Assembly: GCA_043228905.1 (NCBI GenBank)
Contig: JBHGNT010000015.1
Span: 5,270,001-5,334,000 of the forward strand
Length of the DNA stretch: 64,000 nt
Origin: Azolla caroliniana
Taxonomy: Eukaryota; Plantae; Polypodiophyta
Direction of reading: 5' to 3'
Shown here: positions 3,400-60,610 of the stretch, piece after piece
Layout of the letters: every line of letters begins with the position of its first letter
Numbering within the stretch: position 1 is the first letter of the stretch
Notes under the pieces: generated by a model
The model's database searches: none
What the model saw: the letters and a program-made list of their open reading frames with translations, nothing else
What the model was told of the DNA's origin: nothing
Position numbers and translations under genes: made by a program

Positions 3400-3854
3400 T
3401 ATTATAGATCTTGGTACTAACGTAAGCTTAAGATAAGGATAATGAAAAGATAGATAGAAAGGAGAAAGAGAAAGAAGGGTACCGATCCACCCGACCACCC
3501 CCGAGCGAAGGGATCGAGACGGACTCGAGCCTCGATCGGCGTCCCATACCACCGCCGTGGCGTCGAGTCGTACCTGGTGCTGGCGCACTCGCTACAAGAG
3601 TTGACCCACCACACGAGCAGAGTCTCGATGTAGTCAAAAGATGATCAAATGAGGGTAGCTAGGCCTCTTATTTATAGCGAAACCCAAGGCCCCCAGGCAA
3701 GTTCACACTTGACCTAATGGGTTGTCTCAATCCCGAGGATTAAAAGTAATCCTCCCCTTCTTTACACTCTCATTTAACCCTCACACTTATCCACGTGTAT
3801 AGAATACTACGGTAAATTCTTACCACGGGATATTATATGGTCATGCTCGTAACA
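3400..3854 (-). repeat. 3' LTR of Gypsy A
   Basis: Direct repeat of 9963-10417; termini TGTTAC...TATAATA on the element strand. Confidence 0.95.
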
Positions 3855-6800
3855 TACTCCCCCTCTTTAAAACATTGCACTCTTGCAATGGAAAGTTAGG
3901 GAAGTTAGTTCTAAGAGTATTTTCGCGTTCCCATGTGGCATCTTTTATTGATTTATCCATCCATTTTATTTTGAATTCTCGGATTTCTTTAGTACGTAAT
4001 TTTTTTGTTTTAACATCGAGAATTCTTTCTGGTACATGTGGTTTAGAAGATAATTCTTCAGAAGTAACCAGAGTTTCAGTCGTAACTGTATTGTCGCAAG
4101 AACCTAGAAGTTCTTTTAGACGACTCACATGAAAGACTGGATGAATTCCGACACCATCGGGAAGAGCGAGACGATAGGCTGATGACCCAATGCGTTTGAG
4201 GACTATAAAAGGTCCACAAAACCGTGGGGCTAACTTAGCGCACTTACCCGTAGACAATGTCTTAGAATTGTGAGGTACACGTAAAAATACCTTCTGTCCA
4301 GGGTTGAATACACGAGGTTGCCTATGATGATCGGCATAAAAACGCGCTCTATCTTGAGCTGTTTTTATATTATCTCGTGCAATATGCAACATATCTTGCA
4401 TATCCCGAAGAAAGTTTTGCGTACTTCGCAACTCATCATGATGTATATTAACATCAATCGGGGCTCGTGGCTGAAAACCATACATCAACATAAAAGGACT
4501 ATATCCCGTTGACGTATGCTTGGAGCTGTTATAAGCAAACTCCAAAATTGGGAGATAACGTTCCCATTTTGTTGGTTTTGCACCAACGTATGCTCGAAGC
4601 ATGTCCTCAATAATTTGATTTACTCGTTCTGTCTGTCCATCGGATTGAGGATGATCCGTGGAGCTCATGCTCAACGTAGTTTCTAACTTCTTAAAGACTT
4701 GTGTCCAGAAGTCACTAGTAAACTTTGGATCTCGATCACTCACGATATCCATCGGTAACCCATAAAAACGAAACAATTCGTCAACAAATTGGTAAGCCAA
4801 TTCAGGAGCTGTTACCGTGGTTTTAGTAGCAATAAATCTGGCCATTTTAGTTAGTCGATCAACGACAACCCAGATGGCATCATGACCTTTTTGGGTGCGA
4901 GGAAGGCTAACAATAAAATCCATGGATATACTTTCCCACTTATTATTGGGAATGTCCAAGGGATGTAAAAGTCCTGCGGCTTTAAGTCGCTCGACTTTGT
5001 TAACCTGACACTGGTGACATTTAGTCACATAGCTATGTATGTCAGGACGCATCTTAGGCCAATAAAATTGAGTGGAGATGAGAACGAGTGTACGATGTAT
5101 TCCAGGGTGCCCTGCTGAGGGTGCATCATGGCATTAAAAAAGAATCCTCTTTTTGACCTCGGGTAAATCTGGAACACAAACCTTCCCATTACGGTAGAGC
5201 AAACCGTTAGCAATGTGGAAGTATTCCTTCAAGGATGTGGTGGTGTCTGTTCCAGACTCAACTCTAGCCCAGTATTTTGCGAAATAACTGTCATCAGGAT
5301 ACTTTCCTCGAAGGTGATCATAAAGATCTGATGATATTTCAGTGAAGCTAAGCGTGTTAACTTCACGGATGCGACTTAGTGCATCAGCGACAATGTTCAT
5401 GGAACCTTTACGATATCGTATGGAAAAATCAAAGTCCTGGATGAGATCAGCCCATCGTGCCTTACGACCTTTCAGGTCTTGTTGGTCACAAAAATATTTC
5501 AAGGACTCGTGGTCCGTAGTTACCACAAAGTGATTTCCATAAAGATAATGGCGCCATGTTTTGAGCGCATGTATAACTGCAAATAATTCCTTTTCTTGAA
5601 CGGTATACCGACATTGAGCAGAATCAAGTTTCTTACTCTCGAATGCTATTGGTTTACCATCTTGATACAAGACAACACCTATAGCATAATCGCTTGCATC
5701 GGTTTCAACCTCAAAAGGTTTTGAAGGATCAGGTAAAAGAAGTGAAGGAGCCTTGCAAACCAGGTCCTTGAGTTCCTTAAATGCAAGGTCTAGTGTAGCA
5801 TTCCACACAATAGGTTTTGTAGACTTACGCGTTTGACCTTTTAAAAGATCAGTAAACGGCATCGTCAATTGGGAGTAATTACGAAGAGACTTTCGCAAAA
5901 ACCCCACAAAACCAAGGAATGATCGAACTTCTCGAATATTCCGAAGAGTGGGCCAAAGCTTGATTTTCTCAATGCGAGAAGGATCAATTTCAACTCCTCG
6001 TTCGGTTATGAGATGTCCTAGATAAGTAATTGATTTCTTGAAGAACTCACATTTTGAGATCTTTGCATAAAACTGTTTGTCACGCAATGTTTGTAAAACA
6101 AAGCGGACATGTCTAGCATGTTCTTGTAATGTACGGCTATAAACTAAAATATCATCCAAGAAAATAACGACAAATTTTCCAAGTTGTTCTCGGAAAATGT
6201 CATTCATTTCTTGTTGAAAAGTAGTCGGAGCATTGGTCAAACCAAAAGGCATAACCAAAAACTCGTAATGGCCATAGCGCGTACGAAATGCCGTTTTAGG
6301 AACATCGTCCTCACTTATTCGTATTTGATGGTAGCCAGTACGGAGATCAAGTTTCGTAAAATACCGAGCTCCCTGGAGACGGTCAATTAGATCGTCAGCC
6401 CGGGGCAATGGATACGAATTCTTGATCGTCACTTTATTCAAGCGTCGGTAATTAATACACATACGCCATGTGCCCTCTTTCTTTTTAACCAAGAGAACTG
6501 GTGCACCCCATGGAGATTTACTATAACGTATATAACCCATTCGTAAATAGTCCTTGAGTTGCTTAGATACCTCATCTTCTTCGGATCGACTTAAGCGATA
6601 CGGAGGTATACTTATTGGTGCAACACCAGGTACAATATCTATACGATGGTCTATATTACGTTTAGGAGGTAACCCATCAGGTAGTTCACTTGGAAAAACA
6701 TCATGAAAATCATTTAAGATTTCATCAAGTTGTTGTTTTTCAAAATATGTTAATTGAATCGGGACATTATCGATATTGTAAACGTGAATGTCCGGATCAA

Positions 6801-8274
6801 GTACACAATAAAATAACGTAGAACAAGACAACTCGGATATTGATGGACACGAGGAAACAATCGAGAGGGATTGTTTTTTTACACATTGAATAAAATGCGT
6901 ACAATCGTTCAGTACAAAAGAAATGGAATGACGAACCCAATCAATAAATAAAGAAGAGTTTTTATTATAAAACCAGGGATAACCCAGTATTACATCGGTG
7001 GTACAAAGATTCATTACATGGAAGTCTACTTCCTCTATATAAGTATCAATAGAAATTCCTAATGAATGAATCGCCCCGTTGATGTATTATACTCTTCCAT
7101 CAGCCAAGTGCACCGTGTAGGTGTGATCACTTACGGTGGGTTGGATTCCCCATATCTGAACCAAACGATCATTCACAAAATTGTGTGAGCTTCCCGAATC
7201 AAATAAAAACTGTACGGGAGATCCATTGATATACCCGTTTGCACGTAGTAAATCATTGGGACCCAATACATAGTGAGGGAAAGAACATTGACAATTACTT
7301 AAATGATGTGTATAGACCTGAAGGACATTAGGAATCTGACCTTTATGGTCTGCAGCTTTAGCTTTGTTGTCGTGCTCTTTCCGTTGGAGCTTTCGACATT
7401 GATCTTTTGTATGACCCTTCTTTTTGCAGAATACACAAAAAGGATGTTGTCGCTTACAATCGCGATCCAGGAATTCGTTGGGTGTCTTGCGTTTCCCAAC
7501 AAATTGCGACTGCTTAGTCCCGGGCGCTTCGTTGGGTTTGTTATGGTCCTTCTTCGAAGTGCGTTGATAGCGAAGAACTATTTCAACGGCCTCTTCGAAG
7601 GATTTTGGATCCTTATCGTGCACTATCCAGTGATAGTCCGAATTGGGGATGCCATTGACAGAACAAGCTATCAACCAATTGTCCCCTTCTAGACCCGATT
7701 TTTGGATTTGGGTTCTAGCATGGTGAACATAGTCTTCTAGCGAGGAAAATTTCCTGCTAGAGAGGTTCATTAAAGCTTGTGCTGCCTCGGTTCGAGAGGG
7801 AGGTTGCAGAAATTGGCCCTTAAAAACCGTGACAAAATCTGTCCAGGTATCGGGCAATTTCCCCATAGTACGGAGGCCACGCCACCAGGTGGCGGCCTTA
7901 CCCCCGAGTTCTCGGCCGACATATGCAATCTTCGTACTATCTGGCGTGGGATAGAGCTCAAAATGAGACTCCCATCGTCCCAGCCATGTGCAGATTGCTT
8001 CTTCGGTTCTTTCCTTTTTGTCTCCGGTAAATGGCTTAACGACAAATGATGGTTCACCTTGTCGCTCATCAGGTCTATTAGTCTCACGTTGTAGACTAAT
8101 GACACGTGCCTCAAGAGCACTTTGAGATTGCCGAAGTTCGGTCATCTGTTGAGCGGTGAAACTAAGGTATTGGGTTATTTGTGCCAAATACATCTCAGTG
8201 GACATTTGTCCAGGAGGATTCCCTTGAGTTCCTTCCGCTTGAGCGGATGACATCGGGTCGTTAATTTGAGCCAT
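3841..8274 (-). pseudogene. Gag-Pol polyprotein of Gypsy A, single frame with two premature stops (~7087, ~5134)
   Basis: ORFs 7087-8274, 5134-7014 and 3841-5052 share one frame; CX2CX4HX4C knuckle, LFDSGS protease, [20 protein letters not shown] RNase H, SMDF/SDRD/DGQTE integrase, GPF motif, C-terminal chromodomain (PERILD...FKIKW...DATWE). Confidence 0.93.
3855..3868 (-). promoter_or_regulatory. Polypurine tract of Gypsy A
   Basis: AAAGAGGGGGAGTA on the minus strand abutting the 3' LTR. Confidence 0.85.
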
Positions 8275-9459
8275 TAAAGATTATTTCTGGAAAAGAAATA
8301 GGATAAGGTCAGAGATATAGTCATAACATCATGTCGTGATGTAAACATATCATGGGCGAGCATTAATCGATATCATTATCTCACGTCAATACCCCTCTAG
8401 ACGTATGAGATGAGGTTCAAGATCAGGTTACTATGGTAACACAAAGGTGTTTTAAAAACCATGGGGGTGACAAATAAATGTCTTTCCCTGATCTCTATAT
8501 CAATTTTTTCATGGTGGCTCCCCGAGGCTCAACCATGTATGTTCGCGTCATGAATAGTTTATACACGAAAAAAAATGTTAACAATAAACTATGTTTCGGT
8601 GCCCACATAAGTGGTTTCGGCTCTTTAAGTCCTATTACGAGGACCCCGAGGTGCACTTAGACCTTAAGTCTAAACATGTGTTATAGTCATATGTATCAAG
8701 GATGTTGTATGGTCTTGGTCATATTTGAACTCGAGACCTCGAGAACAAATACATTAAACACTTGAGCCAACCAAGTAAGTTGCTCTTCTCGAATGCTTAA
8801 TGTTTGATGCGTATAAGAGATATGCGAGGCAATTGATCATATATGTTTTTTTAAAAGAACATATATGTCAAGGTCCTTATTTCGCCCTCATTTACCAAAA
8901 CTATGTTGATACGTTACCTAACCTCAAGTCTCGTAATTACGATGGCATATGCCAAAGGGCAACCTAATGGTCAAGCCAAATGAGCCCTCGTTTCGTAGTA
9001 GGCTCACGTGGGCCATCACATGGTCACGTCATTACGAATGCCTCTCGTAAGAACGAGCTCATGGTGGCATCGTATCCATGTAACGAGGGGGGGATGTTGG
9101 ATACGTGCGTCATTGGAGCGACCTCACTTGAAGTGGGTCAAGCCCTACGTACTCAACATCATTTTGGCTATTCGCGTTTCTTTACGTAACGAAATCGAGG
9201 TCGTCAACGGGGTTATCAACAATAAAAAAATGTTGAAAAAGGGATGGTGACAACGCCATTCTCACAAAAATGTGAGGACGGCCACCAACATCCTTTTCCC
9301 GACAAGGACAACTTTCGATATAATCACGTAATAACGAATATACACATATGTTTACTTATCACATATATACGATCAAATACGTATATATGTGACCACATAT
9401 GCCTATATTAAACATATCGTTATATTAAATAGCCACAAATGATGTGATCGAGATACATA

Positions 9460-9715
9460 ATCGAGGTATATACCTCTACGCACATGAAACATCCACAAAT
9501 AAGAGATCATCGTAATACGCAATGGAGGTATTGACCTCTTACGCATACGAGACCAAACGCATATCGTTTACAACAAATCAAGGTATTAAACTCATACGCA
9601 AACGTAACATATGTTCGTGAACGTAATACGTAATTGAGGTATTAACCTCGTACGCATACGACACTCATCACATATTATTAATATGTCAAACGAGGTATTG
9701 ACCTCGTGCACATAT
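9460..9715. repeat. Five ~56-bp-period degenerate repeats with palindromic core GAGGTAttrACCTC in the Gypsy A leader
   Basis: Cores start at ~9463, 9525, 9580, 9636, 9692. Confidence 0.75.
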
Positions 9716-9948
9716 GTAAACGTTTTAGATAATCAATTAAAGACCACTACAACATCATTGACTTAATGAAAAAAATTACATATAAACTAAACACATGATT
9801 AGATGGGAGAAGAGAGAATAGAAAGAAAAATTATGGAAAGAGTTACCGAAGTTCTTTGTTGATCGTTGTCTGGATCAAGGCCAACCGCACAACGATCGAT
9901 CAGCATCAATCAAAAGACAAATGAAAAACAAAGAAACATTAGTACAAA

Positions 9949-9960
9949 GCTCTGATACCA
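9949..9960 (-). promoter_or_regulatory. PBS (initiator tRNA-Met) of Gypsy A
   Basis: TGGTATCAGAGC on the minus strand, 2 nt from the 5' LTR. Confidence 0.92.
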
Positions 9961-9962
9961 AA

Positions 9963-10417
9963 TATTATAGATCTTGGTACTAACGTAAGCTTAAGATAAG
10001 GATAATGAAAAGATAGATAGAAAGGAGAAAGAGAAAGAAGGGTGCCGATCCACCCGACCACCCCCGAGCGAAGGGATCGAGACGGACTCGAGCCTCGATC
10101 GGCGTCCCATACCACCGCCGTGGCGTCGAGTCGTACCTGGTGCTGGCGCGCTCGCTACAAGAGTTGACCCACCACACGAGCAGAGTCTCGATGTAGTCAA
10201 AAGATGATCAAATGAGGGTAGCTAGGCCTCTTATTTATAGCGAAACCCAAGGCCCCCAGGCAAGTTCACACTTGACCTAATGGGTTGTCTCAATCCCGAG
10301 GATTAAAAGTAATCCTCCCCTTCTTTACACTCTCATTTAACCCTCACACTTATCCACGTGTATAGAATACTACAGTAAATTCTTACCACGGGATATTATA
10401 TGGTCATGCCCGTAACA
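9963..10417 (-). repeat. 5' LTR of Gypsy A
   Basis: Direct repeat of 3400-3854; followed by TSD GTAAC. Confidence 0.95.
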
Positions 10418-22928: not shown

Positions 22929-23384
22929 TGTTACCGATTAGGAACACGGTCTGCGGTCAGTCCTTCGACCTAGACCTCCAAGTGATTGTGGAACAACGAA
23001 TGGGGCGTCTATGCGTAATGCGTAGGGGAATGTTCCCCGCAACCTATCAGTGTATAAGGGAGACGGCTACAACCGACTCCTTAGCAATGGTTACACTTAC
23101 ATTCTTACACACTCAGGTATTCCAGACACAATAGATTTAGCCGTAGCTATACACAAACTTTCAGAGAAGATAGAATTCTATTACGATATGCTTCTTTACA
23201 TTCCAAAATACACGCTCCCTCTATTAGAGGTTTTCTGTCCTTTATATACGCAGGGTCTATTTAGCCGTTCACGCTTCTTGCGTGAACCGTTACATGCGTT
23301 ATGATCTTATATTATTTCTTATTCCTACGCTCTTGTTCATCGGTTACTATTCCGATATACAATACCTGGCATGCTTGTGGGACA
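22929..23384 (-). repeat. 3' LTR of Gypsy B (inner boundary approximate)
   Basis: Repeat of 32474-32930; TG...CA termini. Confidence 0.8.
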
Positions 23385-25172
23385 GTGCCCTGGCACGTCG
23401 GATCCCGTTAATCTTCTTCCAAAATGGCCCGGATGTTTGGCTCTGCTACGGTGTCCGCGTCCGGAGGCGATGTAGGGCCCGTAGGTGCATCGTGGTGTGG
23501 CTCCCCTGTTTGGTCGGAATGGTTGCTCCCGGTGTCGCAGTCGTCGTGTGTGGGTGGTTCGGGTACGATGGGCTCTTCTTGAGCTAGTGGGTTGGGCTCC
23601 GCTGTCGTCGTGCTTGCGGTCGGCCGCGACTTTGTCTCAATCGTTACTTCCTTCGTGGTGTCGGCCGTCTTTGTACATTCCGGGGAGTGGGGCTGCGATT
23701 CCGCCTGGCCCGCACCGTTCTCCGCGTGGTCCGTCGATAGCGTGGGCTCCTGCGGATGGAGCTCGTATTGGGCAGCGGTTTCGCTATCTGGAACTATGGG
23801 GGACTCCGCTCGTCGGTCCGCATTGTTCACCATCGTTGTAATTTGTGATGATCTAGCCTGAGGTTCCTCTTCTTCGGCCGTGCCCGGAATTGGCGTTGTG
23901 CTGGATTTCTCATTTGTTCGCGTGTTGCCGGCTTGTGTGATCTGGTGAAATAGCTCCTCCTGGCTTTCACCAAAATCATCTAAGAGCTGCGCGAGTTCTT
24001 CGGAATGTTGGTACGTTAGCGCACGATAGTCTTGCGCTAGGTCCTCGAGTACGGTCGCAATGCTCTCCTCATTTAGTTTATAGAAACCTCGGCCGTCTTT
24101 TCGCCGGTTCTCCCAGTCCGCACGATACGCGTGCAATTCCGCTGCTTGGGTTGCCCACGCCATCCATCCTTTGTCCAACGCCGTTTTCAATTGCGCTGTG
24201 AACCTCTCCTGATTTGTTTGGAGAAGGATACGCACGTTGTCTGTGATGGCCTAGCAATGGCTGTGTGCGTCCTCCATCGACTTCTGGAGGTTTGCAATTT
24301 CTTGCTGCCTAACTGTCACCGCTTCTTCGTACGTGGCCTTCAGACCCGCCCACAGTTGGGATTCCTTTGCATGTTGTTCTTCTAATTTCCCCATTTCATT
24401 GTTTAGGCGGATTTCGAGCTGATGCCTTCTTTCCTGTTCGACCACCAGCTGCTCGTCGAACCATACCTTCTTTTTCTCTAATAAGACCCGGAGTCCCGCC
24501 ATTGCCGCCTCCGATTTCTTCGCTTCATCCCGTAATTGGGCGTTTTCGTCTTTTGTCCGGATGTGCTGAGCTACCTCCGTAGCGAGTTTCTCTTCAAGGG
24601 TTTTTACTGCCTTCTGGCTGTTAGCCCGTATCTCCTTTTCTCTGTCTGAGGATTGGCGCAATTCAGCTCGAAGGTGGTCAATTTCTGATTCCGCTAGTTG
24701 CACGACCCTTTTCGCTTTTGAGGCGATGGTGGTCTGAGCCTCAATTTCTTCCTTCAAAGCGTCGATGGCGTGGTTTGGTGGCGGAGTTGCGTGTTGCGCC
24801 GTAGTTGCGTTAGCTTCCAACTCCGTGATGCGTTCGTTGGCATTTTGCAGCTCGGCTTGGGTCATTTTCACCTTCTTCCAGACATTCTTATTTTTAATGG
24901 CCATCTCTTTGGCGCTCGTGCTGACTTTTGCCAGTTCCCGATGGACTTCGACTAGGGCCGTGTTTAATGGGGGTAGCTCCATCCCCACTCAGTGTACCTC
25001 GGCGTTCCTTTGTCTGCCGACCCTGGCTAGCCGGTCCTCATCGTCGCTCTCGATCATCTGGTGCTCCGCGTGCTCCTCGGCCATTCGTTGGGAGGCTTTT
25101 ATCTATTGTGTTGCCAGGAATTCCATGACCTCAAAAGAGGTTCCGAATTGTAAGAGGGCGCTGAACTCATGG

Positions 25173-25627
25173 TGTTACGGGCATGACCATATAATATCCC
25201 GTGGTAAGAATTTACCGTAGTATTCTATACACGTGGATAAGTGTGAGGGTTAAACGAGAGTGTAAAGAAGGGGAGGATTACTTTTAATCCTCGGGATTGA
25301 GACAACCCATTAGGTCAAGTGTGAACTTGCCTGGGGGCCTTGGGTATCGCTATAAATAAGAGGCCTAGCTACCCTCATTGGATCATCTTTTGACTACATC
25401 GAGACTCTGCTCTTGTGGTGGGTGAACTCTTGTAGCGAGCGCGCCAGCACCAGGTACGACTCGACGCCATTGCGGTGGTATGGGACGCCGATCGAGGCTC
25501 GAGTCCGTCTCGATCCCTTCGCTCGGGGGTGGTCGGGTGGATCGGCACCCTTCTTTCTCTTTCTCCTTTCTATCTATCATTTCTTTATCCTTATCTTAAG
25601 CTTACGTTAGTATTTAGATCTATAATA
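25173..25627 (+). mobile_element. Solo LTR of the Gypsy A family
   Basis: 455-bp reverse-complement match to 3400-3854; TSD CATGG at 25168-25172 and 25628-25632. Confidence 0.95.
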
Positions 25628-26614
25628 CATGGGCCGTATTCGAGATATCTAGTTATGCCAAAACCTCGCTTTCCGTCGTCAATACGGCTTTCCCTCGTTG
25701 GGACTGGGTCGTAATGATCGGCCGAGGCTCCCGGATGATTTCGAAGGTGGTATTGGGCTCCGTAGCTGCAGAGCCATCGCCTTCGGTCGTTGTCTCTACC
25801 ACCGTGGGGACGTCTTTGACCAATCCCTGCTCATCTTTCCTGTCCAATCTACGTCGTTTCGGTCTGGGGCTATCCTGCCATGTTTCGGTGTCTGGCTCTG
25901 GGGTTGCTGCCACAGAACGTGCAGATTGTTCCTCATGCATTGTCCTTGTGTCCGGCTGGGCGGGAGGTGTTGTCCTTGTGTCTGGCTGGGCGAGTTGGGG
26001 TTCCTCTTCCCACTCTGGGCCGCTAACTATGCTAACCTGCGCTTCGCGGATCGTGGTGGGGGCGTGGGTCGGCTGGGCTGTGGTGCCGGTAGGCCTCGGG
26101 GTGGGAATAGTACCGTAAGGTACTGTTGTATGATCGGCTTGAGCTTTTTGCCTGCCTGATACGCATGCAGGCCTTCCCTTAACGCTGGCCCTATGATGAC
26201 CCCCCAATCGACCGCACACCCTTCAACGGTATCGATAGTGATGCCCGCCTTCTGCTTGGGCATCCCATATGCGTTGACATGTACGCAGCCGACCTCTAAC
26301 AGGAACTTGGCAACTTCACGAAAGAAGGGATCCAGGATCTGCTTCGTTCTATAGGCCTTGGTGGAGGAGGAATATGGCCCGAAATATCGCTGCAGCGCCT
26401 CTGCAGGAGGGATTTCGAAATGCCTTTCGCCTAGCGATGACAGGTCCAACTTTTTTCGGATGGAAGAGTTGGTGACCGTGTCGATGTTAAGCTTCCTGGC
26501 GATGTCCATGGCATCTGGGTGTGGGGGTGCCTTTGCGACCCGGATGTACCCATCCAGGTGTTTCTCCACGAGCCATCGGCGTAAGGCAGTAGAGATGAAG
26601 ATCGGCATCGCTAG

Positions 26615-26761
26615 TGTTACGGGCATGACCATTTAATATCCTGTGGTGAGAATTTACCATAGCCTTCTTCACACTCTCGTTTAACCCTCACACTTATCCA
26701 CGTGTATAGAATACTACGGTAAATTCTCACCACGGGATATTAAATGGTCATGCCCGTAACA
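26615..26761. mobile_element. 147-bp fold-back insert made of two inverted Gypsy A-family LTR 5' ends
   Basis: TGTTACGGGCATGACC...GGTCATGCCCGTAACA; TSD GCTAG at 26610-26614 and 26762-26766. Confidence 0.9.
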
Positions 26762-27030
26762 GCTAGAGTAGGTTCGTGGGAAGGAGATTGGTGGTTGCGG
26801 TGGGCTGGAGCTCTGTGATAGGATGGAGGAGAAGGTGAGGGGGACGAGCGATGGGAGCACTGATAGTTAGAAGGTGGGTTTCTATTTTGTGTAGAAGATC
26901 TTCTATTTCCTTCTTTTTGTGGCTTAGGGTTCATTGGGCGGTGATCCATCGTGGTGCCGCGTAGTCCTTTTAATAGTCGCTATCTTTTTTTTTTTTTTTC
27001 TGTAACGGTTATATACAACCTATTTTTACA

Positions 27031-30000
27031 TTATGGTACAAGTGGGGCCGTCCCTTTACGCCGCGGGTTCTTCGGCACTGTCCTGTTTGGCGGTGAATGG
27101 GTTAGGTGGCGTAGGGCCCAGGTAAGGTTTAAGGCGAAACCCATTCACCTTTTGCCATACTACTTCCCCGGCCAGCGTACCTAGTTGGAACGTGCCTTGT
27201 TCCGCTCCAATTATCCAGTATGGGCCGGTCTAGCGGAATCGTAACTTCCTCGGCATATGGCCCATGCGGGTTTGGAAAACCAGCACCGCTCGACCGACGA
27301 CGAACTCCTTTTCCCTTGCGTTTCGATGTCGATCCACAAACGCTTTACGCCGTCGCTGTTCCTGCTCCAACACAACCATGCTGTGTACGAGGTTTCCCCC
27401 GAGTTCGAGTAGCTGGTGGAGCCATACCTCCTCCGACTTGGCTTCCGATAGTCGGTCCCGTACCTGAATCCACAAACTAGGTACCTGAAATTCGACCAGC
27501 ATCACAACCACCAACCCAAACGCTAGTTGAAACGGTGTTGACTGTATGCTTGTTTTGTAGCTGGTTCTGTACGCCCATAACGCACTCTGTAATTTGGTAT
27601 CCTAGTCCGTTCTATTTTCATTGACAATTTTCTTCAAGATGGTCTGCAATGTCTTGCTGGTGGATTTTGCTAACCCATTCGGTTGTGGATAATATGGCGT
27701 ACTCTTCTTATGGACTACGATGTAATGATGTGTTAGTTCCCGAACCACCGTATTGAGAAAGTGACTCCCTTGGTCACTGATGAGCTCAATCGGACAGCCG
27801 AACCGGCACTAGATGTGCTCGTAAAGGAATCTGGCTGTGACGGCCGTTGTATTTTCTCGTAGTGCCTTTGCTTCTACCCACTTGGTGCAGTAATCCGTAG
27901 CTACCAATATGTATTTATTGCTCATACGGGCTGCCGTTGGTGTGAAGGGGCCACGAAATCCAATCCCCACTTTTGGAAGGGGTCTAGCGGTAATACGGGC
28001 TGGTGTGGCATCCTTGCGCCCTCCATGGGCTGGCCCATCCGTTGACACAAATCACACTTTCTACAATACTCGGATGCGTCCTTCTACGTTGTTGGCCACC
28101 ATAAGCCCGCCTGCCATATCTTCCGGGCTGTAACGTCGCCCGCGTAATGGCCGCCTGCCGTGCCATAGTGCGCCTCCCATAAAACTGCTTCTTTCTCATC
28201 TTGACGTACCCCACGTTGCCAAATGCCGTCACTGCCTTTGTGATATAAAACTCCTTCTACGAGGCAGAAGTTACGGCTTCGAACGGCTAGTTGTTTCTTC
28301 TCGTCCGTGCGTAATTGTGGTGGAGGCAGTCCTATAGTCAAAAGGTATGTCATTTCCATAAGCCACCGGTCTAGAAAGGTCGATTCCGTTCTTTCTGCTA
28401 GTGCTGCTACCCGCAGGACGTCGGCGTCCGGAAAATCGTCATCATCTTTCTGTACTGTTTCTCCATTCTCGAGTCTGCTCAAAAAATCTGCCACCGCGTG
28501 TTGCATCCCTGGTCGGTGCTGGATTACGAAATTGAATTCTTGGAGCAACAACATCCATCGCGCCAATTTCCCCATTAGGGCTTGTTTCTCCACCAAATAC
28601 AGTAGTGCCGAATGATCCACGTGGAACGTGAATTTCCTCCCTAGTAAATAATGCCGAAATTGATTGATGCTATAGATCATCCCTAGCGCCTCCCGCTCCG
28701 TTGTGGAATAGTTACACTCTGTTGTTAATAATTTGCGACTAGCGTAGTACACTGGCCGGTACCAGTTTGGTTCAATGAGCTGCATTAGTGCACTTCCTAT
28801 TGCTATGTCCGAGGCGTCGACGAACACGTGGAATGGCTTCACCCAAACTAGTGGTTGTATGATGGGGGCCTGTGTGAGCATTATCTTAAGTGCCTCATAG
28901 GCCTTGTCCTCCGTTGTTGTCCATTGGAAGGGAGTCCAATGTACGACAACATGTAACGGCGTGGTGAAGTCCGCCAAATATCGTATCATCCGACTATGCC
29001 ACCGTATTTGTCCTAAAAACCGGTCGAGTGATTTCGCGTTTGTCAGAGTTTTGGCTTGCGTAATCGCGGAGATTTTGTTCAGATCGACCACTTTTCCCTC
29101 CTTGTTGACTATATGGCCCAGGAGAGTCCCGCTGGTCACGCTGAAGGCACATTTTGCGGGATTCAGACTTAAGCGTGCGGTGCGGCAACGTTCCAGGAAC
29201 AGTTGCAAGTGCGTAAAATGGTCTATTGTTCTCCCATATACTGCAAAGTCATCTAAAACAACATGCATGAACGCCAGAATGTATTCCCCAAAGATCTCCG
29301 TAATTGTCCGTTGAAATGTTGTCGGCGCCGTTTTTAGCCCGAACATCATGACGGCTACCACATAGACTCCCCAGTCCGTGACAAATGTCGTCTTTTCTTG
29401 GTCCTCGGGATGCATGCGTACCTGGTTATACCCACTGAAGCCATCTAAAAAATTGTACATCTCATGTCCTGCGACGACGTCCAATACGCTATCGGTGAAG
29501 GGTAAAGGGAATGCGTCCGTAATGGTTATGACATTTAATTTTCGGTAATCCACGCATACCCGTATTTTGCCGTTTTTCTTTGGAACGACCACTATTGGGC
29601 TTAACCAGGTGGCTTGTTTAACTGGCCGTATGAACCCCGCCTTCAGGAGTTTGTCAATTTCTTCTTTTACGCGGGTCGCATAGTTTGGGTTCATGCGGTA
29701 GCAGCGCTGCTGGATGGGTTTTGCGTTGGTTGCTAAATTGATCTTATGCTGATAGAACTTGGGATCTAACCCCTTCATGTCCTTGTGAGCCCAAGCGAAC
29801 ATATGTTTATATTTCGTGAGTAGTGTGATCATCGTGTTTCTCTAGTCCGGCCTTAATTTCTTTGCGATGGAGAGGAAACGGGGTTCCAACTCCGTACCCA
29901 CATTTACTTCTTCCAGGGCGGAGGCGGTGACTCATCGTGAAATTTCCATTTCCCTTTTGAATGCGGCCCGTGCTCTGCTGAGTTCCAATATGGAATCTGG

Positions 30001-32451
30001 GTTTGGTTCGTAAGCCTCGTTGTGGAAAATAGTGGCCGTGGCATATTCTGCCGTGGTTGCGATGATGTCGATTTCGAACAACGGAATGATCCGTGGGTGC
30101 TCATCTAGGTATGCCTCTAATTCTGCATTCTCCACCCCAGCCAACATATTTATATCTTCTACGTATAATGGTGTTATACCCTTGGGTTGTGGTGTGCTTC
30201 CTTCCGTAGGTACGCGAACCTTGGTGCGTCCGTGTCGGAAACTGATACACTTGTGTTGCCAGCTCTACTTGATATTTGCTGCCCGAAGCCATGGTCTGCC
30301 CAGAAGCACTAGGTACGCCCCTAGGGCGTCCAAGGCGAGGACAACCGTCGAGATGTCAAAGCGATGTCCGCCCATGATAATGCCTATCTTGCGAATTAAC
30401 CCCAATGGTCGTACTGAACGGGTATCTGCCATTTGGAGCCAGAATGGGCAAGCCTCCCATTCTGAGATGCCTAATTGCTTGCAAGTTTTCGCACTAATTA
30501 CATTGACGCCTGAGCCGCCATCAATTACGCATCCAAGAATTTCTTGTCTGTGTAATATTAATGTAATAGCCGGGTTGTGGTGATCCACTCCAAGCGGGTC
30601 GTCGCTAACGTCTGTAAGGTTTGTAGCGACGCTCACCCCAGGTATGCCTGTCACCCGTTCTTCCATGGTCTGGCGGAAGCGTGGGACTAGCTGAAACAAC
30701 TTCTCCATGGTTAACATTATCTCACAGCCCGCTAATGCTTGCCAAATGGGGTCCGGGACCGGTCCTTCGTCTTCTACTTGCTCCCTCGCATTCGCGGACT
30801 CCTTCCGCATGCGCTCTGTATTGGTCGCGTTTGCTTTTTCCACCCATGCCTAGGTTTGTCGTCATATCTCATCTTGCGTAGCCCAATAAGCCGTTTTTGT
30901 TTGTTGGCGCGTCGTGACTTGCTGCACTTCCGCGGTAATCGTGATGACGGCGGGCCCCTTGCCCTTGCGTGCTAGGCATTGCGTGGCATAATGTCCAGGC
31001 TCCTGACAAATAAAACAATGGATACTTGATTCACCCTTCTCGATTCCTGGTGGTGTGTGCCGATCCCCTTCTGCGACTTGCTCCTCCTGGTCCGGCCTGG
31101 TTTGTCGGAACACATGCGGTGGTTGCCGTTGGTCTCGTCGTGGTTCTTGGTGTCTCTCATCTCCCGAGCTTTCGTCGTAACGCCGGTGATCTCGATATTG
31201 CCGTGGCTTCCCACGATAACCATTGAAGCTGCCACGTTTGTTTGCCGGCCGGTGATTCTCATAGCGCCGGCCCCCTTTAGCATAACTCGGATGTCCACGA
31301 TAATCCTCATCCTCTGGTTCATCTTCCTCAGAATCGTTGTGATTTCGGCGATTCCGGTGGTGCCGGTCGTCCCGTGGGTTGCGATCCATATACCGTGGTC
31401 GGTCTTCTTGCCTCCTTTGTTCAGTATGGCGTGGGGGACACTGTGTGTCCATGCTGCGGACTGTGGGAGCGGCTCTGTTCAACATATTGTATTCGCATTG
31501 TTCGACTGTGTGAGCCTTTGAGTGGCAGATTGGGTAGTGGATTCGCATGTTGCACTCCACTGCAGAATGCCCCAAGTTCAAGCAAATCGTGCACTGGATT
31601 ACTTGACGAAACTGGCGTTCCTCGTCCTGGGGTAATGCTTTTCGTAAGGAGGAGATAGAAAAACTTTCCTCCTCCTCGTCCAACTTGACCTGTAACGCTC
31701 GTTGAATGACCATATTTTCCGTTTCCCCTTTCACGCTATTGTTGTTGAGCGTTGCCCGGATGGGTCGGCGTAATGCTGCCAGAATTGTCTCTCGAGCCTC
31801 GTCCTCTGTGGTGCTCCGTTCTAGTTTCCGTCGTAAATTTTGGAAACGTAAGCTAAAGTCTGCAATCGTCTCGGTTGGCAGTTGCTTAATCGTGTAGAAC
31901 TGTCCGAGGATTTCGCATTGTGGAACCCTCCGATGGAAGAACCGCAAGAAAGTGGACTGCAACTGATCGAAGGTCGTGATTGCTGGTAAATCCATCTGTG
32001 AATGCCAAAACGCCGCTCGCCCATCCAATGTTAACCCGAACTCCGTCATTTTCGACTGGTGCGCTACCGCCTCCGAAAGGCTCTGTGCCATGTGGTTCGC
32101 ATTTTAGACATTAAGGAACATACGAATATGGGTTGTGGCGTCGGTTTCGCCGTTAAAGCAGGGATAGGCAAAGGCCATGCTGGGGGCTACGACGGGTCGG
32201 GAAAGACCAAATGATGGCTGTGGTGAGCGTGCTCCTCACGTATTGTCGAGGTGTTTGGAGAGCGAAGAATCACCTTTGTAATCACGACAGGTAGGACTGA
32301 GGTCGCTGAGGTCCTCTGCCTGGCTTCTACCATGCGCGGTCCTCTGCCTGGCGTGTGACGGACCTTGTGATTGGCCGGTCTTGTCATGTTGGTTCTCTGG
32401 GGTGTCTGCGGCTAAACATCCATTCGTCGTTGCTCTTCTGTGAGAAGACAC
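27031..32451 (-). pseudogene. Gypsy B gag-pol (degenerate)
   Basis: Three CCHC-type knuckles, VIDGGSGVN protease, MMFGLKTAP/VLDD RT, VDASDIAIG RNase H, TDYCTKWVEA integrase. Confidence 0.88.
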
Positions 32452-32473
32452 AGATCACCAAGAGTGCCAAAAT

Positions 32474-32930
32474 TGTTACTGATTAGGAACACGGTCTGCG
32501 GTCAGTCCTTCGACCTAGAATTCCAAGTGATTGTGGAACAACGAATGGGGCGTCTATGCGTAATGCGTAGGGGAATGTTCCCCATAACCTATCAACGTAT
32601 AAGGGAGATGGCTACAACCGACTCCTTAGCAATGGTTACACTTACGTTCTTACATGCTCAGTATTCCAGACACACAATAGATTTAGCCGTACCTATACAC
32701 AGACTTTCAGAGAAGATAGAATTCTATTACGATACGCTTCTTTACATTCCAAAATACACGCTCCCTCTATCAGAGGTTTTCTGCCCTTTATATACGCAGG
32801 GTCTATTTAGCCGTTCACGCTTCCTGCGTGAACCGTTACATGCGTTATGATCTTATATTATTTCTTATTCCTACGCTCTTGTCCATTGGTTACTATTCCG
32901 GCGGACAACACCTGGCACGCCTCTGGGACA
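32474..32930 (-). repeat. 5' LTR of Gypsy B
   Basis: Repeat of 22929-23384; adjacent to the PBS. Confidence 0.82.
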
Positions 32931-33240
32931 GTGCCCTAGCACGTTGAACCCATCTCGTTAATCTTCTTCCAAAATGGCCCGGATGTTTGGCTCTGCTACG
33001 GTGTCCGCGTCCGGAGGCGACGTAGGGCCCGTAGGTGCATCCTGGTGTGGCTCCCCTGTTTGGTTGGAATGGTTGCTCCCGGTGTCGCAGTCATCCTGTG
33101 TGGGCGGTCCGGGTACGGTGGGCTCTTCTTGAGCTAGTGGGTTGGGCTCCGCCGTCGTCGTGCTTGCGGTCGGCTGCGGCTCTGTGTCAATCGTTACTTC
33201 CTCCGTGGTGTCGACCATCTTTGTACGTTCCGGGGAGTGG
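32931..33240 (-). mobile_element. Remnant 3' internal region of a tandem second Gypsy B copy
   Basis: Duplicates 23385-23690 (…AEPNIRAILEED*). Confidence 0.85.
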
Positions 33241-38062: not shown

Positions 38063-38921
38063 TCCGCCCCCACCTAACCGCGCATCCACCGGTATGCGCC
38101 AAAATTGGGCTCTTGCCGGAGAAAACCGGTCCACGCTTTACTCCTCGCCTTTCGGATCGTCATCCGCCTCGGACCGTCCGTCGTCGCCGTCCATGATTTC
38201 CAGATCCGGCTCACACTCGTGTCGTTTCTTAAATGCTTTGACCCTCTTCCCCGCTACTGGTATTGCCATCCTCGTACCGTCGAACTCCGTACGATGGTAG
38301 GTCCCGTTGTCGTTGGCGCCTGTCACCGCGTAAGGCCCGAACAACCTCCTTGCAAACTTTCGCTGTCGTGCCTTTCGGCTCCGGATCGTTTCGTGAGTCG
38401 GGTGGAAACCGCTGGGGTTTTGGACTAGGAAGAGGAGAGTTTTAAGGCTAATAAGAATATAAATATGTTGTAAGAAAGAGTTATAGCAAACTCGTGAATC
38501 CCACGAGTGTATTGTATTTGATTAATCAATATGAATATAAGAATATAAATTTGGGTTGAAAGAGAATGATATAGAATCCTCGTGAATCCCACGAGTATAG
38601 TTTATTAATTGGTGTTTTTTAGAAACATATCCAGTTTCCAAGTATTTCACACACAATTACATTGTGCTCCCCATCCTTATGTAGTGATGAGGAAGTCTTA
38701 GTAATCCATGCTTTTTCTCTAACTATAGACCCCATGCTTTTCCTATAGATAGACTATATGCTTTATCTAAAGTGATCATGCTTTTTTCTAACTTGTGCGA
38801 TTTTTATCATGCACGCTAGATGTGTATGTGTAGCTTTTTCTTTTGTTATGCGTTTTTCTAATGTTTATCCTAGCGTGAATTTACCTTTCTATGTGGGACA
38901 TCTATGCTTTAACACTAATGA

Positions 38922-39010
38922 AATGCTAGTGTAATGGTAAGACATTACATTATTAACATGGAGGTGCAAGGTTCGAATCTTGCCCTATGCATGTTCCATT
39001 TATTTTGCTA
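38922..39010 (+). ncRNA. tRNA-like Pol III cassette (A box, B box, T-run) in the element D 3' LTR
   Basis: A box TAGTGTAATGG 38927-38937; B box GGTTCGAATC 38970-38979 in hairpin GCAAG..CTTGC; TTTT runs downstream. Confidence 0.55.
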
Positions 39011-39090
39011 TTTTCTTCTATTTCTTCATTTTTTATTGAATCTAATACTATATACGTTTTTCACGTAGTGTACAAAATACACTACGACAC

Positions 39091-41112
39091 TCACCCCCTC
39101 CAAACCCGCACATCCTCCGGTATGTGCCGAAGTTGTTGGTGTTTGTTAGTCTCCTCCGTCCGGTCTCTACCCGATTGGTTTCGTTGCCGGCTCGTAGTAC
39201 CCTCGACTTCTCTTGTTATGTTGACTTTGTCTCTCCATTTGGAGCACATCCATTCTTTCCACCCGAACCATTGTCGACATCCGATCCACCATAGTCTTCG
39301 TTCGCTTTTTGCATGGCCCGCTTGGTCCTTGTCATCCGCGGTAGTATCTTTTCTTGCCCTCTTTCTTTTCTTCATCAATCTCGACTTCTTTTCGGATTTT
39401 CGGCTTAGTCGGATTAGCTTACTTCCGATTCGGTCTCGTCGGATCGTCTTTCGTTTAGTTCGGCTTCCTTTCCGATTTGTATTCGGTCGATCCGGACTCG
39501 GTCGATCGGTTTTTACCGATTCAGTGCTCTTTCGGGTCGGTTTCTTTTCTTTTCTTTTCGTCCGGATTTGCTTTCTTTTCTTCGTTTTCACCTGCCTTGT
39601 CCGGTTCGACTTTCGGCACTTCTTTCCGTTGTTCGCCACGTAGGTCCTCCGATATGTGCTCGTTGTTCGGTCCTCGTGTGGTTGTAATGCATGCTTCTTT
39701 TCTCGCCGTAGCGCGTGCTTCTTTATTCGCCATAACACGCGTTTCTTTATTCGCCGTAGAGCGTGCTCTGTATTACGCGCTTCTCCCGTCGTAGACCCGA
39801 CCTCCGCATTGTCGCACTTTCTTTTAGATTGGAATTTCGGATGGATCATTTTCCATCCGAACCGACTTCCGACTTTACCTTCCTCGCCGCCATCTCCCGT
39901 CTCTCCAGTCTCACGTTGGTTCTCGGACACAACCGCCGAAGTCTCTAGATATTGTTGGCATGAATCCTCGGTATTACCTTCTTTCGTAGTTTCACCCTTA
40001 GCATTCTTCTCGGCTATCTCTTCATCGTATTCGTCGGCTTCGACATTCGTTTTCTCTCCGCCACCTTCCGTCTCTTCGGTCTCACGTTGCCTTTCGATCG
40101 CAACCGCCGGAGTCTCTGGAATCAGTGGTGGGGAAGTCTCGATATGGCAATCCGCCATTGATTCGTCCATAGCCACCTCCGATTCGATTTCGTCTTTTAT
40201 GGCTACCTCCTTAATCACATCCGCTTCACACTCTTTATCTGCATCAATTATGCAAACATCTATTATGCTTACCCCTTTTTGACCCGATGTCTCGGGCACT
40301 TGTATCCCGAAATTTCCTTCTACACTTGAATTATCGGCCTTATCCTTCGCCATCGTTCTTTCACAAGACGAGTGGGTGTCTTGTTCCACTCTTTCTCCCG
40401 TGGTACCATCATGTTGTATTTCGGCCTTCATATTGGCTTCATCGTTTTTCCTCAATCGACCATCCTTCATGGGCCATGTCGTTGTTGACGAGATTCTCAG
40501 CTTCCTTTCATCATGTCTTCGGCATACCCTTTCGACTTTAGCCCAATCCTCGGTAAGACCATTCGCACCGTCATCGTCTTCGAGTTCAATCCCGATGTCC
40601 TTCCTTTCTTTCCGATCAATCGATCTTACGAACATTAGGACTTTATCCTCTCCCACCAATCGTTGTTCCCGCTCCGAGAGTCGAGCAAAACGATGCTCGA
40701 ACTCTAGGAATGCTTGTGTTGCACTTCGGTGGGTCTTCTCCGATGCCACCCATTCATCGAACTCTCGCCGATCTCGTCCCTTCGGTCTATCGTAATCATA
40801 TGCCTCTCGTAAAGCTTCTTCGAATGACCCCCATGTCGAGTTTTGTTGCCGTATCTTGTGGATTCTCTCTTGTAGCTCATCCGTGGCCACCCGATTGAAG
40901 GATGTCACTTGCAATCCTTCCGGTATCCCACATCGTATCATCTCCGCCTTGTAGTCACGTAGATAGCATGACACATCATTTCCGTTGAATTGTCCGTTTC
41001 GTTGTACGAGCCGCTTTACTACCGCCGTGATCTCCGACATCGCTTGTTGTTCTTGTAGCATCCGTTCGAACATCATCATCATCATGTTCATCGCCTCTTG
41101 TTGATTCTCCAT
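39091..41112 (-). CDS. Gag-like protein with long acidic then basic C-terminal extension (~673 aa from first ATG)
   Basis: Uninterrupted ORF; N-terminus aligns by eye with Gypsy C gag (F.G.D...YL..Y.AEM...IPE; VL.FV..D; DGLT.DWA.V.RVC). Confidence 0.85.
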   Translation of the reverse strand: MENQQEAMNMMMMMFERMLQEQQAMSEITAVVKRLVQRNGQFNGNDVSCYLRDYKAEMIRCGIPEGLQVTSFNRVATDELQERIHKIRQQNSTWGSFEEALREAYDYDRPKGRDRREFDEWVASEKTHRSATQAFLEFEHRFARLSEREQRLVGEDKVLMFVRSIDRKERKDIGIELEDDDGANGLTEDWAKVERVCRRHDERKLRISSTTTWPMKDGRLRKNDEANMKAEIQHDGTTGERVEQDTHSSCERTMAKDKADNSSVEGNFGIQVPETSGQKGVSIIDVCIIDADKECEADVIKEVAIKDEIESEVAMDESMADCHIETSPPLIPETPAVAIERQRETEETEGGGEKTNVEADEYDEEIAEKNAKGETTKEGNTEDSCQQYLETSAVVSENQRETGETGDGGEEGKVGSRFGWKMIHPKFQSKRKCDNAEVGSTTGEARNTEHALRRIKKRVLWRIKKHALRREKKHALQPHEDRTTSTYRRTYVANNGKKCRKSNRTRQVKTKKRKQIRTKRKEKKPTRKSTESVKTDRPSPDRPNTNRKGSRTKRKTIRRDRIGSKLIRLSRKSEKKSRLMKKRKRARKDTTADDKDQAGHAKSERRLWWIGCRQWFGWKEWMCSKWRDKVNITREVEGTTSRQRNQSGRDRTEETNKHQQLRHIPEDVRVWRG

Positions 41113-41128
41113 CTCCTTGCCACCCGCC

Positions 41129-41146
41129 TTCACGTCGGGTTCACCA
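41129..41146 (-). promoter_or_regulatory. PBS complementary to tRNA-Trp
   Basis: Plus strand reads TTCACGTCGGGTTCACCA, matching from memory the 3' 18 nt of plant cytosolic tRNA-Trp. Confidence 0.85.
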
Positions 41147-41708
41147 ACTGTGTCGTGCCTTTCGGCTCCGGATCGTTTCGTGAGTCGGGTGGAAACCGCT
41201 GGGGTTTTGGACTAGGAAGAGGAGAGTTTTAAGGCTAATAAGAATATAAATATGTTGTAAGAAAGAGTTATAGCAAACTCGTGAATCCCACGAGTGTATT
41301 GTATTTGATTAATCAATATGAATATAAGAATATAAATTTGGGTTGAAAGAGAATGATATAGAATCCTCGTGAATCCCACGAGTATAGTTTATTAATTGGT
41401 GTTTTTTAGAAACATATCCAGTTTCCAAGTATTTCACACACAATTACATTGTGCTCCCCATCCTTATGTAGTGATGAGGAAGTCTTAGTAATCCATGCTT
41501 TTTCTCTAACTATAGACCCCATGCTTTTCCTATAGATAGACTATATGCTTTATCTAAAGTGATCATGCTTTTTTCTAACTTGTGCGATTTTTATCATGCA
41601 CGCTAGATGTGTATGTGTAGCTTTTTCTTTTGTTATGCGTTTTTCTAATGTTTATCCTAGCGTGAATTTACCTTTCTATGTGGGACATCTATGCTTTAAC
41701 ACTAATGA

Positions 41709-41797
41709 AATGCTAGTGTAATGGTAAGACATTACATTATTAACATGGAGGTGCAAGGTTCGAATCTTGCCCTATGCATGTTCCATTTATTTTGCTA
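41709..41797 (+). ncRNA. Second copy of the tRNA-like Pol III cassette (element D 5' LTR)
   Basis: Same sequence as 38922-39010. Confidence 0.55.
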
Positions 41798-41880
41798 TTT
41801 TCTTCTATTTCTTCATTTTTTATTGAATCTAATACTATATACGTTTTTCACGTAGTGTACAAAATACACTACGACATCGC

Positions 41881-60413: not shown

Positions 60414-60610
60414 ACAAATATTTTTATATTTATTATAGAAATACATAATTTTAGTGTGAAGTCCCATTTTTAATGTCAGATAAAAATATCCATAAATTTT
60501 GGGAAATGCAAAAGTGAGGAATTAATGAACCTTTATTTTATTTTATTCATTTATTAAAAATAAAACAAATATTTTTACATTTACTATAAAAATTTATTAG
60601 TGTCAAGTCC
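60414..60610. mobile_element. hAT-type MITE, internal/3' part (probably the rest of copy 2)
   Basis: Aligns to ~655-890 of copy 1 in the same orientation; right TIR not seen. Confidence 0.8.

Follow-up and report, generated by a model that had tools for sequence, protein, structure and literature searches.

Insertions with two inverted U3 ends in a Ty3/gypsy LTR family of Azolla caroliniana

Insertions bordered on both sides by the inverted U3 end of the same LTR are a real and recurrent class in the genome of Azolla caroliniana. They are specific to one Ty3/gypsy family, here called family A, and are probably by-products of integrase, not a new mobile element. The class is restricted to U3 and, of the three families compared (A, B and C), to family A. 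One copy lies in the window, that is, in the whole stretch of 64,000 nucleotides analysed, within an older retroelement.

The insertion at 26615-26761 and its parent family

The earlier note had described a 147-bp TG..CA element in which LTR bases 1-48 are joined to the inverted LTR bases 1-99 between two copies of GCTAG. This was confirmed, and the parts are as follows:

26610..26614, plus strand: left copy of the 5-bp TSD (GCTAG); the empty site skips 152 bp, with five shared letters
26615..26662, plus strand: short arm, LTR (U3) bases 1-48, the putative fold-back copy; 2/48 differences from the long arm
26663..26761, minus strand: long arm, LTR (U3) bases 1-99, the putative aborted plus strand; 96/99 identical to the solo LTR
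26663..26674, minus strand: LTR bases 88-99, 3' side of an imperfect candidate priming stem, pairing with LTR bases 49-60 in the fold-back register
26702..26713, minus strand: LTR bases 49-60, 5' side of this stem
26762..26766, plus strand: right copy of the TSD (GCTAG)

On the minus strand, the region 26615-26761 reads as LTR 1-99 and then, in reverse complement, LTR 1-48. Segments were called with our own jumping alignment (chosen penalty), which assigns every one of the 147 bases to U3 1-99. The terminal repeats are inverted, and there is no U5, primer site or purine tract. The end present on both sides is U3, as it adjoins the polypurine tract in the full-length parent at 3400-10417, where the opposite LTR end (U5) precedes the primer site. 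The GCTAG copies at 26610-26614 and 26762-26766 form a direct, not inverted, repeat, and thus copying did not run into the host flank. The long arm differs from the solo LTR of the window (25173-25627) at three of 99 sites. Both differences between the arms are CpG transitions, and both arms carry T19 and G34, which are absent from the three LTRs of the window.

The element is not a solo LTR, since it has U3 at both ends and no single U3-to-U5 LTR. Nor is it a TRIM, as the terminal repeats are inverted, not direct, and it lacks an internal region carrying a primer site and a purine tract. The form of a MITE does fit: the element is short and non-coding, with terminal inverted repeats and a TSD. 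The argument that two U3 ends are beyond the reach of solo-LTR recombination holds, and the direct GCTAG TSD and exact LTR termini support the reading of the element as a probable integrase product with two U3 ends. We infer the role of integrase as its maker from these scars.

Contigs of three of the four runs compared (X1, X3, X4) join 26609 to 26762, dropping 152 bp; these may be paralogous host copies instead of the window allele. The same insertion with the same flanks and other alleles is present in contig C1286 (locus L002). No contig listed for X1, X3, X4 and X6 runs across the window junction, and as palindromes break short-read contigs, this is no evidence either way. When contigs of X1, X3, X4 and X17 were compared with the solo LTR, no opposite-strand joint of U3 was seen among the best 15 of 48 matches listed.

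The parent family and the host element are represented in the window by the following features:

3400..10417, minus strand: full-length family A parent, Ty3/gypsy, with gag, protease, RT, RNase H, integrase and chromodomain; TSD GTAAC
9963-10417 and 3400-3854, minus strand: LTRs of this parent, differing at 4/455 sites
3857..3868, minus strand: polypurine tract of the parent, 2 bases before the U3 start
9949..9960, minus strand: primer-binding site of the parent, 2 bases after the U5 end
25173..25627, plus strand: solo LTR of the parent family, 455 bp, the reference LTR; TSD CATGG, ends TG..TA
22929..33240, minus strand: host, an older Ty3/gypsy element carrying the mini-element and the solo LTR; limits provisional

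The primer-binding site at 9949..9960 is presumably of the initiator-Met tRNA type. Pfam matches of the parent follow the order gag-protease-RT-RNase H-integrase, with a Chromo match at E 2.8e-07; judged by domain order and chromodomain, it is a predicted Ty3/gypsy chromovirus. A search for relatives yielded no close relative named to a clade (among Reina, Tekay, Galadriel, CRM and Tcn1). In the host element, the matching LTR parts are 93% alike; RT and RNase H were found at 28084-29841 and gag at 30862-32103.

The U5 ends of 49 sampled family A LTRs are TA in 39 cases, CA in six, and other or uncalled in four. The predominance of TA was noted at window positions 3400, 9963 and 25627 and among the loci L020-L030 and L114-L173. 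Solo copies with TA ends have exact TSDs, and hence the TA ends were integrated.

A family B copy with identical 726-bp LTRs lies at 38364-41876. Its open frame of 706 codons (39091-41211) has no Pfam match, and regularly spaced arrays of this family occur at G000:C3:11.23 Mb and C5:13.23 Mb. Another open frame, at 58603-60423 within a nested retroelement, matches DUF4100.

A genome-wide class of U3-U3 insertions

A DNA search of the 523-Mb genome produced 19 near-full-length matches on many contigs. The census relied on exact patterns, namely two inward-facing U3 motifs separated by gaps of 1-96, 97-130 and 131-400 bases. It gave 61, 26 and 32 matches, respectively, and 0 in the reversed-pattern control; some loci match more than once. 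Of 101 loci analysed, 96 were retained after removal of duplicates (L038, L039), loci with no end pair (L017, L049) and the site of the window itself (L002). Outside these counts are 11 pattern matches and five small-contig look-alikes.

A perfect 5-bp TSD flanks 64 of the 96 loci (0.2 with shuffled flanks), and at least four of the five TSD letters agree at 84 (2.1 with shuffled flanks). Thus the search for other inverted LTR-end pairs with TSDs, proposed in the earlier note, recovered the same build at 84/96 loci. The 84 TSD-supported elements are 80-571 bp long, fall into 74 layouts, and retain the TG..CA termini in 76 cases. Manual inspection added perfect TSDs at L112, L122, L175, L177 and L179. 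At L122 (1076-1525) there is a 450-bp U3-U3 element with a perfect TSD that the exact pattern missed, and so the census is a lower bound. Two U3-U3 minis about 100 bp apart, each with its own perfect TSD, were observed at L094 (593-797 and 900-1078). The long candidates L174 and L176 were rejected, as inspection showed other structures.

The 119 pair matches compare with 3012 genome copies of the U3 motif. On contig C1, five of the first 30 U3 motif matches fall in three U3-U3 elements. The U5 motif, which is narrower than the U3 motif, has 509 copies and one inverted pair; this pair, at L046, is an internal fold-back not bounded by U5, and no true U5-U5 element was found among the 509 copies. 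The genome pattern search for U3 followed by inverted U5 within 400 bp returned only the L177 locus again. No inverted U3 pairs were found among 3800 U3 motif copies of family C or among 460 motif copies of family B.

The layouts range from simple to composite. Only two segments are present in 46 of the 84 elements, including the window copy, and three or more in the other 38. Where a composite shows a fold-back module, the shorter (3') arm of this module lies on the host side in 16/19 cases (p 0.004), and the other end of the module starts at LTR bases 1-15 in 13/19. The partner of the module is a second hairpin in L092, L113 and L070, and a plain U3 arm in L004, L033 and L097. One perfect TSD encloses L009 (1501-2508), which carries a fold-back module on one side and, on the opposite side, the U5 end of a normal 3' LTR. 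The 6.3-kb U3-U3 insertion L179:1027-7355 (G000:C18), 99% identical and with a perfect TSD, holds nearly the whole element as two blocks in opposite orientation and ends in a module of the 89 type. Other long forms are L177, with an arm reaching base 627, beyond the primer site, L175 (1.47 kb), and L104, with a captured internal piece. L178 has a fold-back module, and its TSD does not match.

Host flank was clearly copied in one of the 84 elements, L084; three other single 10-mer matches resemble chance or LTR variants. The local duplication at L084 (593-770) takes in the TSD and flank, and thus this copy was rearranged by the host, either as it inserted or later. A U3 restart, with a piece from base 3 following a short first run, was seen in the normal-polarity LTRs of L161 and L162.

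Junction positions and origin of the copies

The terminal arms are short (median 60 bases); of 168 arms, 152 reach no further than base 120. In the genome search, a single match has sequence beyond the primer site and an inverted U3 no more than 400 bp away. Strand-switch junctions, of which 84 were scored, are concentrated at a few registers: 147 (24), 88/89 (15) and 120 (7). These hot spots are self-complementary, with a mean junction score of 4.83 vs 2.98 for random positions (maximum 3.45 in 5000 draws); if each register is counted once, the score is 3.44 vs 2.98 (p 0.005). The window element belongs to register 147 and switches strand at base 99, the last good pair being two bases earlier; LTR 88-99 against 49-60 gives eight Watson-Crick, two G-T and two mismatched positions. 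Retention of a mispaired 3' end would suit a non-proofreading polymerase. The seven cases of register 120 form a perfect palindrome centred on CACGTG. The rearranged insertions L150, L175, L177 and L040 share a breakpoint at LTR base 112, where the loop of a tight hairpin (bases 101-120) has its edge.

The z-scores for folding of the U3 start are -1.6 to -2.1 for family A, -3.4 for family B and about +1 for family C, and U3 folding as the sole cause was rejected, since the U3 of family B folds more strongly, yet gives no pairs among its 460 motif copies. A weak (TA) U5 end was rejected as a necessary cause, as minis also come from a U3 variant whose two sampled LTRs end in CA.

The elements look as if each was built anew and not copied from one another as in a self-copying MITE family, given 74 layouts among 84 elements, junctions at self-complementary registers of U3, arms that track different subfamilies, and the uniqueness of the window junction. 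Divergence between the two arms of an element is 4.6% (4347 sites), as compared with 6.9% (minimum 5.9% in 1000 shuffles) between arms of different elements; of 150 transitions, 87 fall at CG. Arms within an element share subfamily variants, these variants change from element to element, and several are found in ordinary LTRs. In L015 and L109, the two arms disagree at subfamily-marking sites. The commonest form, of 147 bp, has six identical layouts. On a tree of 12 elements of the 147 type among 49 ordinary LTRs, there are 10 label changes vs a shuffled mean of 10.1, and the AU test for a single 147-type clade, based on 92 columns only, gives p 0.067, which is no formal rejection. The 26-base junction word of the window element occurs in one of 97 elements. 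As to the uniqueness raised in the earlier note, the class is thus not unique (84/96 loci), and the exact junction of the window copy is.

Formation, related systems and significance

On balance, we consider it probable that this is a recurrent class in which aborted plus-strand DNA folds into a hairpin and integrase inserts the hairpin together with a second DNA end, each insertion being built anew. Plus-strand synthesis by RT would begin at the polypurine tract and break off after about 60-120 bases. As the junction positions suggest, the 3' end of this strand would pair with an imperfect palindrome in U3 and copy back to base 1, and the product would be a hairpin with a single perfect U3 end. 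In the part of PMC5371799 considered here, Ty3 is described as recycling its purine-tract primer while displaced dead-end plus strands pile up. A dead-end plus strand that starts exactly at U3 would, by fold-back at a palindrome, yield such a one-ended hairpin. A 5-bp duplication needs two ends, and hence a second end is required beside the hairpin; the scars show that two ends were put in 5 bp apart. Another molecule would supply the second end: a further hairpin, an unfolded piece of U3, or a longer cDNA. Insertion of a hairpin by its 3' end, together with such an end, fits the 16/19 facing bias and the variety of partners (hairpin, U3 arm, U5, long cDNA). Host repair would then copy through the hairpin and join the inner ends, by annealing of the shared U3 start in the simple forms with two arms, to which the window copy belongs, and by end joining with few bases lost in composites. 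The products have no primer site, purine tract, promoter or R region, and so are predicted to be dead ends, unable to copy themselves. Against this account, the 46 two-segment elements of 84, including the window copy, fit its rivals equally well, 3/19 modules face the other way, L178 has no matching TSD, and family B folds well and gives none; the TA-type U5 end is unnecessary. The broader statement, that the family routinely makes plus-strand hairpins which, inserted with the end of another molecule, spread two-headed inverted repeats of U3 over the genome, some hundred of them or more, is tentative, and we hold it somewhat doubtful.

Everything could also happen within the particle. RT would make a linear double-stranded U3-U3 molecule, by hairpin re-priming or by cross-priming of two aborted plus strands at the same palindromes, and integrase would insert this one molecule. 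This is possible and, in our view, rather unlikely. It covers the simple forms (all 46 of them), along with the junction hot spots and the variants that the arms share, and agrees with the origin of the inserted pieces from the element itself, host flank being clear only in L084. The CACGTG palindrome suits two annealing strands more than a loopless hairpin, and primer recycling is documented for Ty3 in the portion of PMC5371799 used. However, if the molecule is symmetric and has two ends, neither the 16/19 facing bias nor inner trimming at bases 1-15 is explained, and the U3-hairpin plus U5 layout of L009 is not made in one pass. Moreover, a duplex of only 80-150 bp would resist the bending needed to bring both its ends into one complex. 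Alternatively, integrase could take the U3 ends of separate cDNAs, with tails trimmed and joined at inverted microhomologies, or with collapse of a long palindrome. The same simple layout and hot spots would result, longer forms exist (L177, L175, L179, L104), and host enzymes can process a viral end missed by integrase, as reported in the part of PMC5041404 drawn on. Still, we find this route improbable: it needs three pieces per composite and predicts no facing bias. Random trimming of 7-kb tails should often pass the primer site, whereas one match does; the 400-bp limit on the gap, however, biases the search towards short forms. Such a process should also affect family C, with 0 pairs among 3800 motif copies.

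The suggestion of a MITE-like family multiplying by itself was not supported by the genome comparison. Spread from a single LTR-end origin, by integrase or by a Ginger-like transposase, could account for the terminal inverted repeats, small size, TG..CA termini and modal 147-bp form, agrees with the AU value, and is favoured by the Gypsy-like ends and integrase that Ginger transposons own (PMC2836005, in part). On the other hand, a uniform founder-derived family does not match the 74 layouts, the junction found in 1/97 elements, arms marked by many LTR subfamilies, or the lack of tree clustering, where the 147 type is scattered among ordinary LTRs (the AU test alone stays at p 0.067); the modal size corresponds to the best nearby self-pairing register. 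This reading is largely refuted for the class as a whole, and we rate it as very improbable. Fold-back chimeras are a known artefact of assemblies and libraries, and no run contig listed crosses the window junction. However, the distinct flanks with matching TSDs at 84 loci, the empty sites, the second contig with other alleles, and arm decay biased to CG make an artefact from fold-back reads barely conceivable. The insertion of a hairpin with the end of another molecule is the reading that we retain.

Solo LTRs and TRIMs resemble the minis in being small and LTR-derived, with a 5-bp TSD and a TG start, but they run from U3 to U5 or have direct repeats, whereas the minis have inverted U3 at both ends and no primer site or purine tract. 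A family-wide U3-U3 insertion class was not found described in the literature covered, which was partial and left supplements aside (TRIM Table S3 may hold more inverted arrays). The closest case in print, as far as the cited parts of the papers go, is the type C tandem array of maize Zma-SMART, two inverted TRIMs in one TSD (PMC4717578). It shares with the minis the inverted retroelement ends within a single 5-bp duplication; however, it is one example of two whole TRIMs, with no mechanism given in the part drawn on, whereas the minis have truncated U3, no internal region, at least 84 loci and hot spots. In the part considered of PMC5041404, one-ended integrations of HIV-1 and ASLV resemble the minis in that integrase and host repair share the job and that viral DNA is truncated or joined to further viral DNA in either orientation. 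They have one junction made by host enzymes and a long duplication or deletion, whereas both junctions of the minis are exact and 5 bp apart.

Dead-end plus-strand strong-stop DNA of Ty3, a by-product of reverse transcription (PMC5371799), and autointegration inversion circles of SISYPHUS, by-products of particle integrase (PMC7197481), are likely substrates for minis, to judge from the sections used; they are non-integrated or circular, whereas minis are folded back and chromosomal. As excerpted, integrase-free insertions of Tf1 lead to direct tandems (PMC11042837), and inverted tandems in Drosophila were interpreted as double insertions (PMC5932611). Ginger/TDD transposons and MITEs likewise have terminal inverted repeats starting with TGT, with 5-bp TSDs in TDD-4/5, and Ginger elements have Gypsy-like ends able to act as terminal inverted repeats, according to the part of PMC2836005 cited. 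These are fixed families with their own transposase, whereas the minis are heterogeneous and follow their parent LTRs.

Folded as RNA, the window hairpin reaches -93.5 kcal/mol (z -17), as expected of any inverted repeat. It is a plausible candidate source of siRNA against family A, and the host element around it could read through it. Mu killer, an inverted duplication of a transposon end, is a related case. Together with proposed LTR hairpin triggers (PMC11624286, in part), it shares with the minis an inverted transposon end and potential hairpin RNA against the family; it derives from a DNA transposon and was shown to silence, whereas the minis are abundant and their silencing is only hypothetical. 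For Arabidopsis EVD, close inverted LTR pairs were sought and none found, with one nested antisense insertion, in the part of the same paper used here.

The usual view is that an LTR element inserts as a single cDNA, bounded by U3 on one side and U5 on the other. A visible share of family A U3 ends departs from this (119 pair matches vs 3012 motif copies), while an equally abundant family has none. The U3-U3 set is a fossil record of RT stall and fold-back sites, and annotation tools are likely to label such insertions as MITEs or to overlook them. Two questions become testable: does integrase, in cells, join ends that belong to different molecules, and what is the origin of the hairpin RNA that first silences a new LTR family? 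If the two-molecule hairpin reading is true, the class would be evidence that concerted integration of two molecules takes place in vivo. It would also represent an inherent path towards killer-type silencing loci directed against the family's own U3, and a natural conversion of LTR to TIR, a possible seed of Ginger-like elements.
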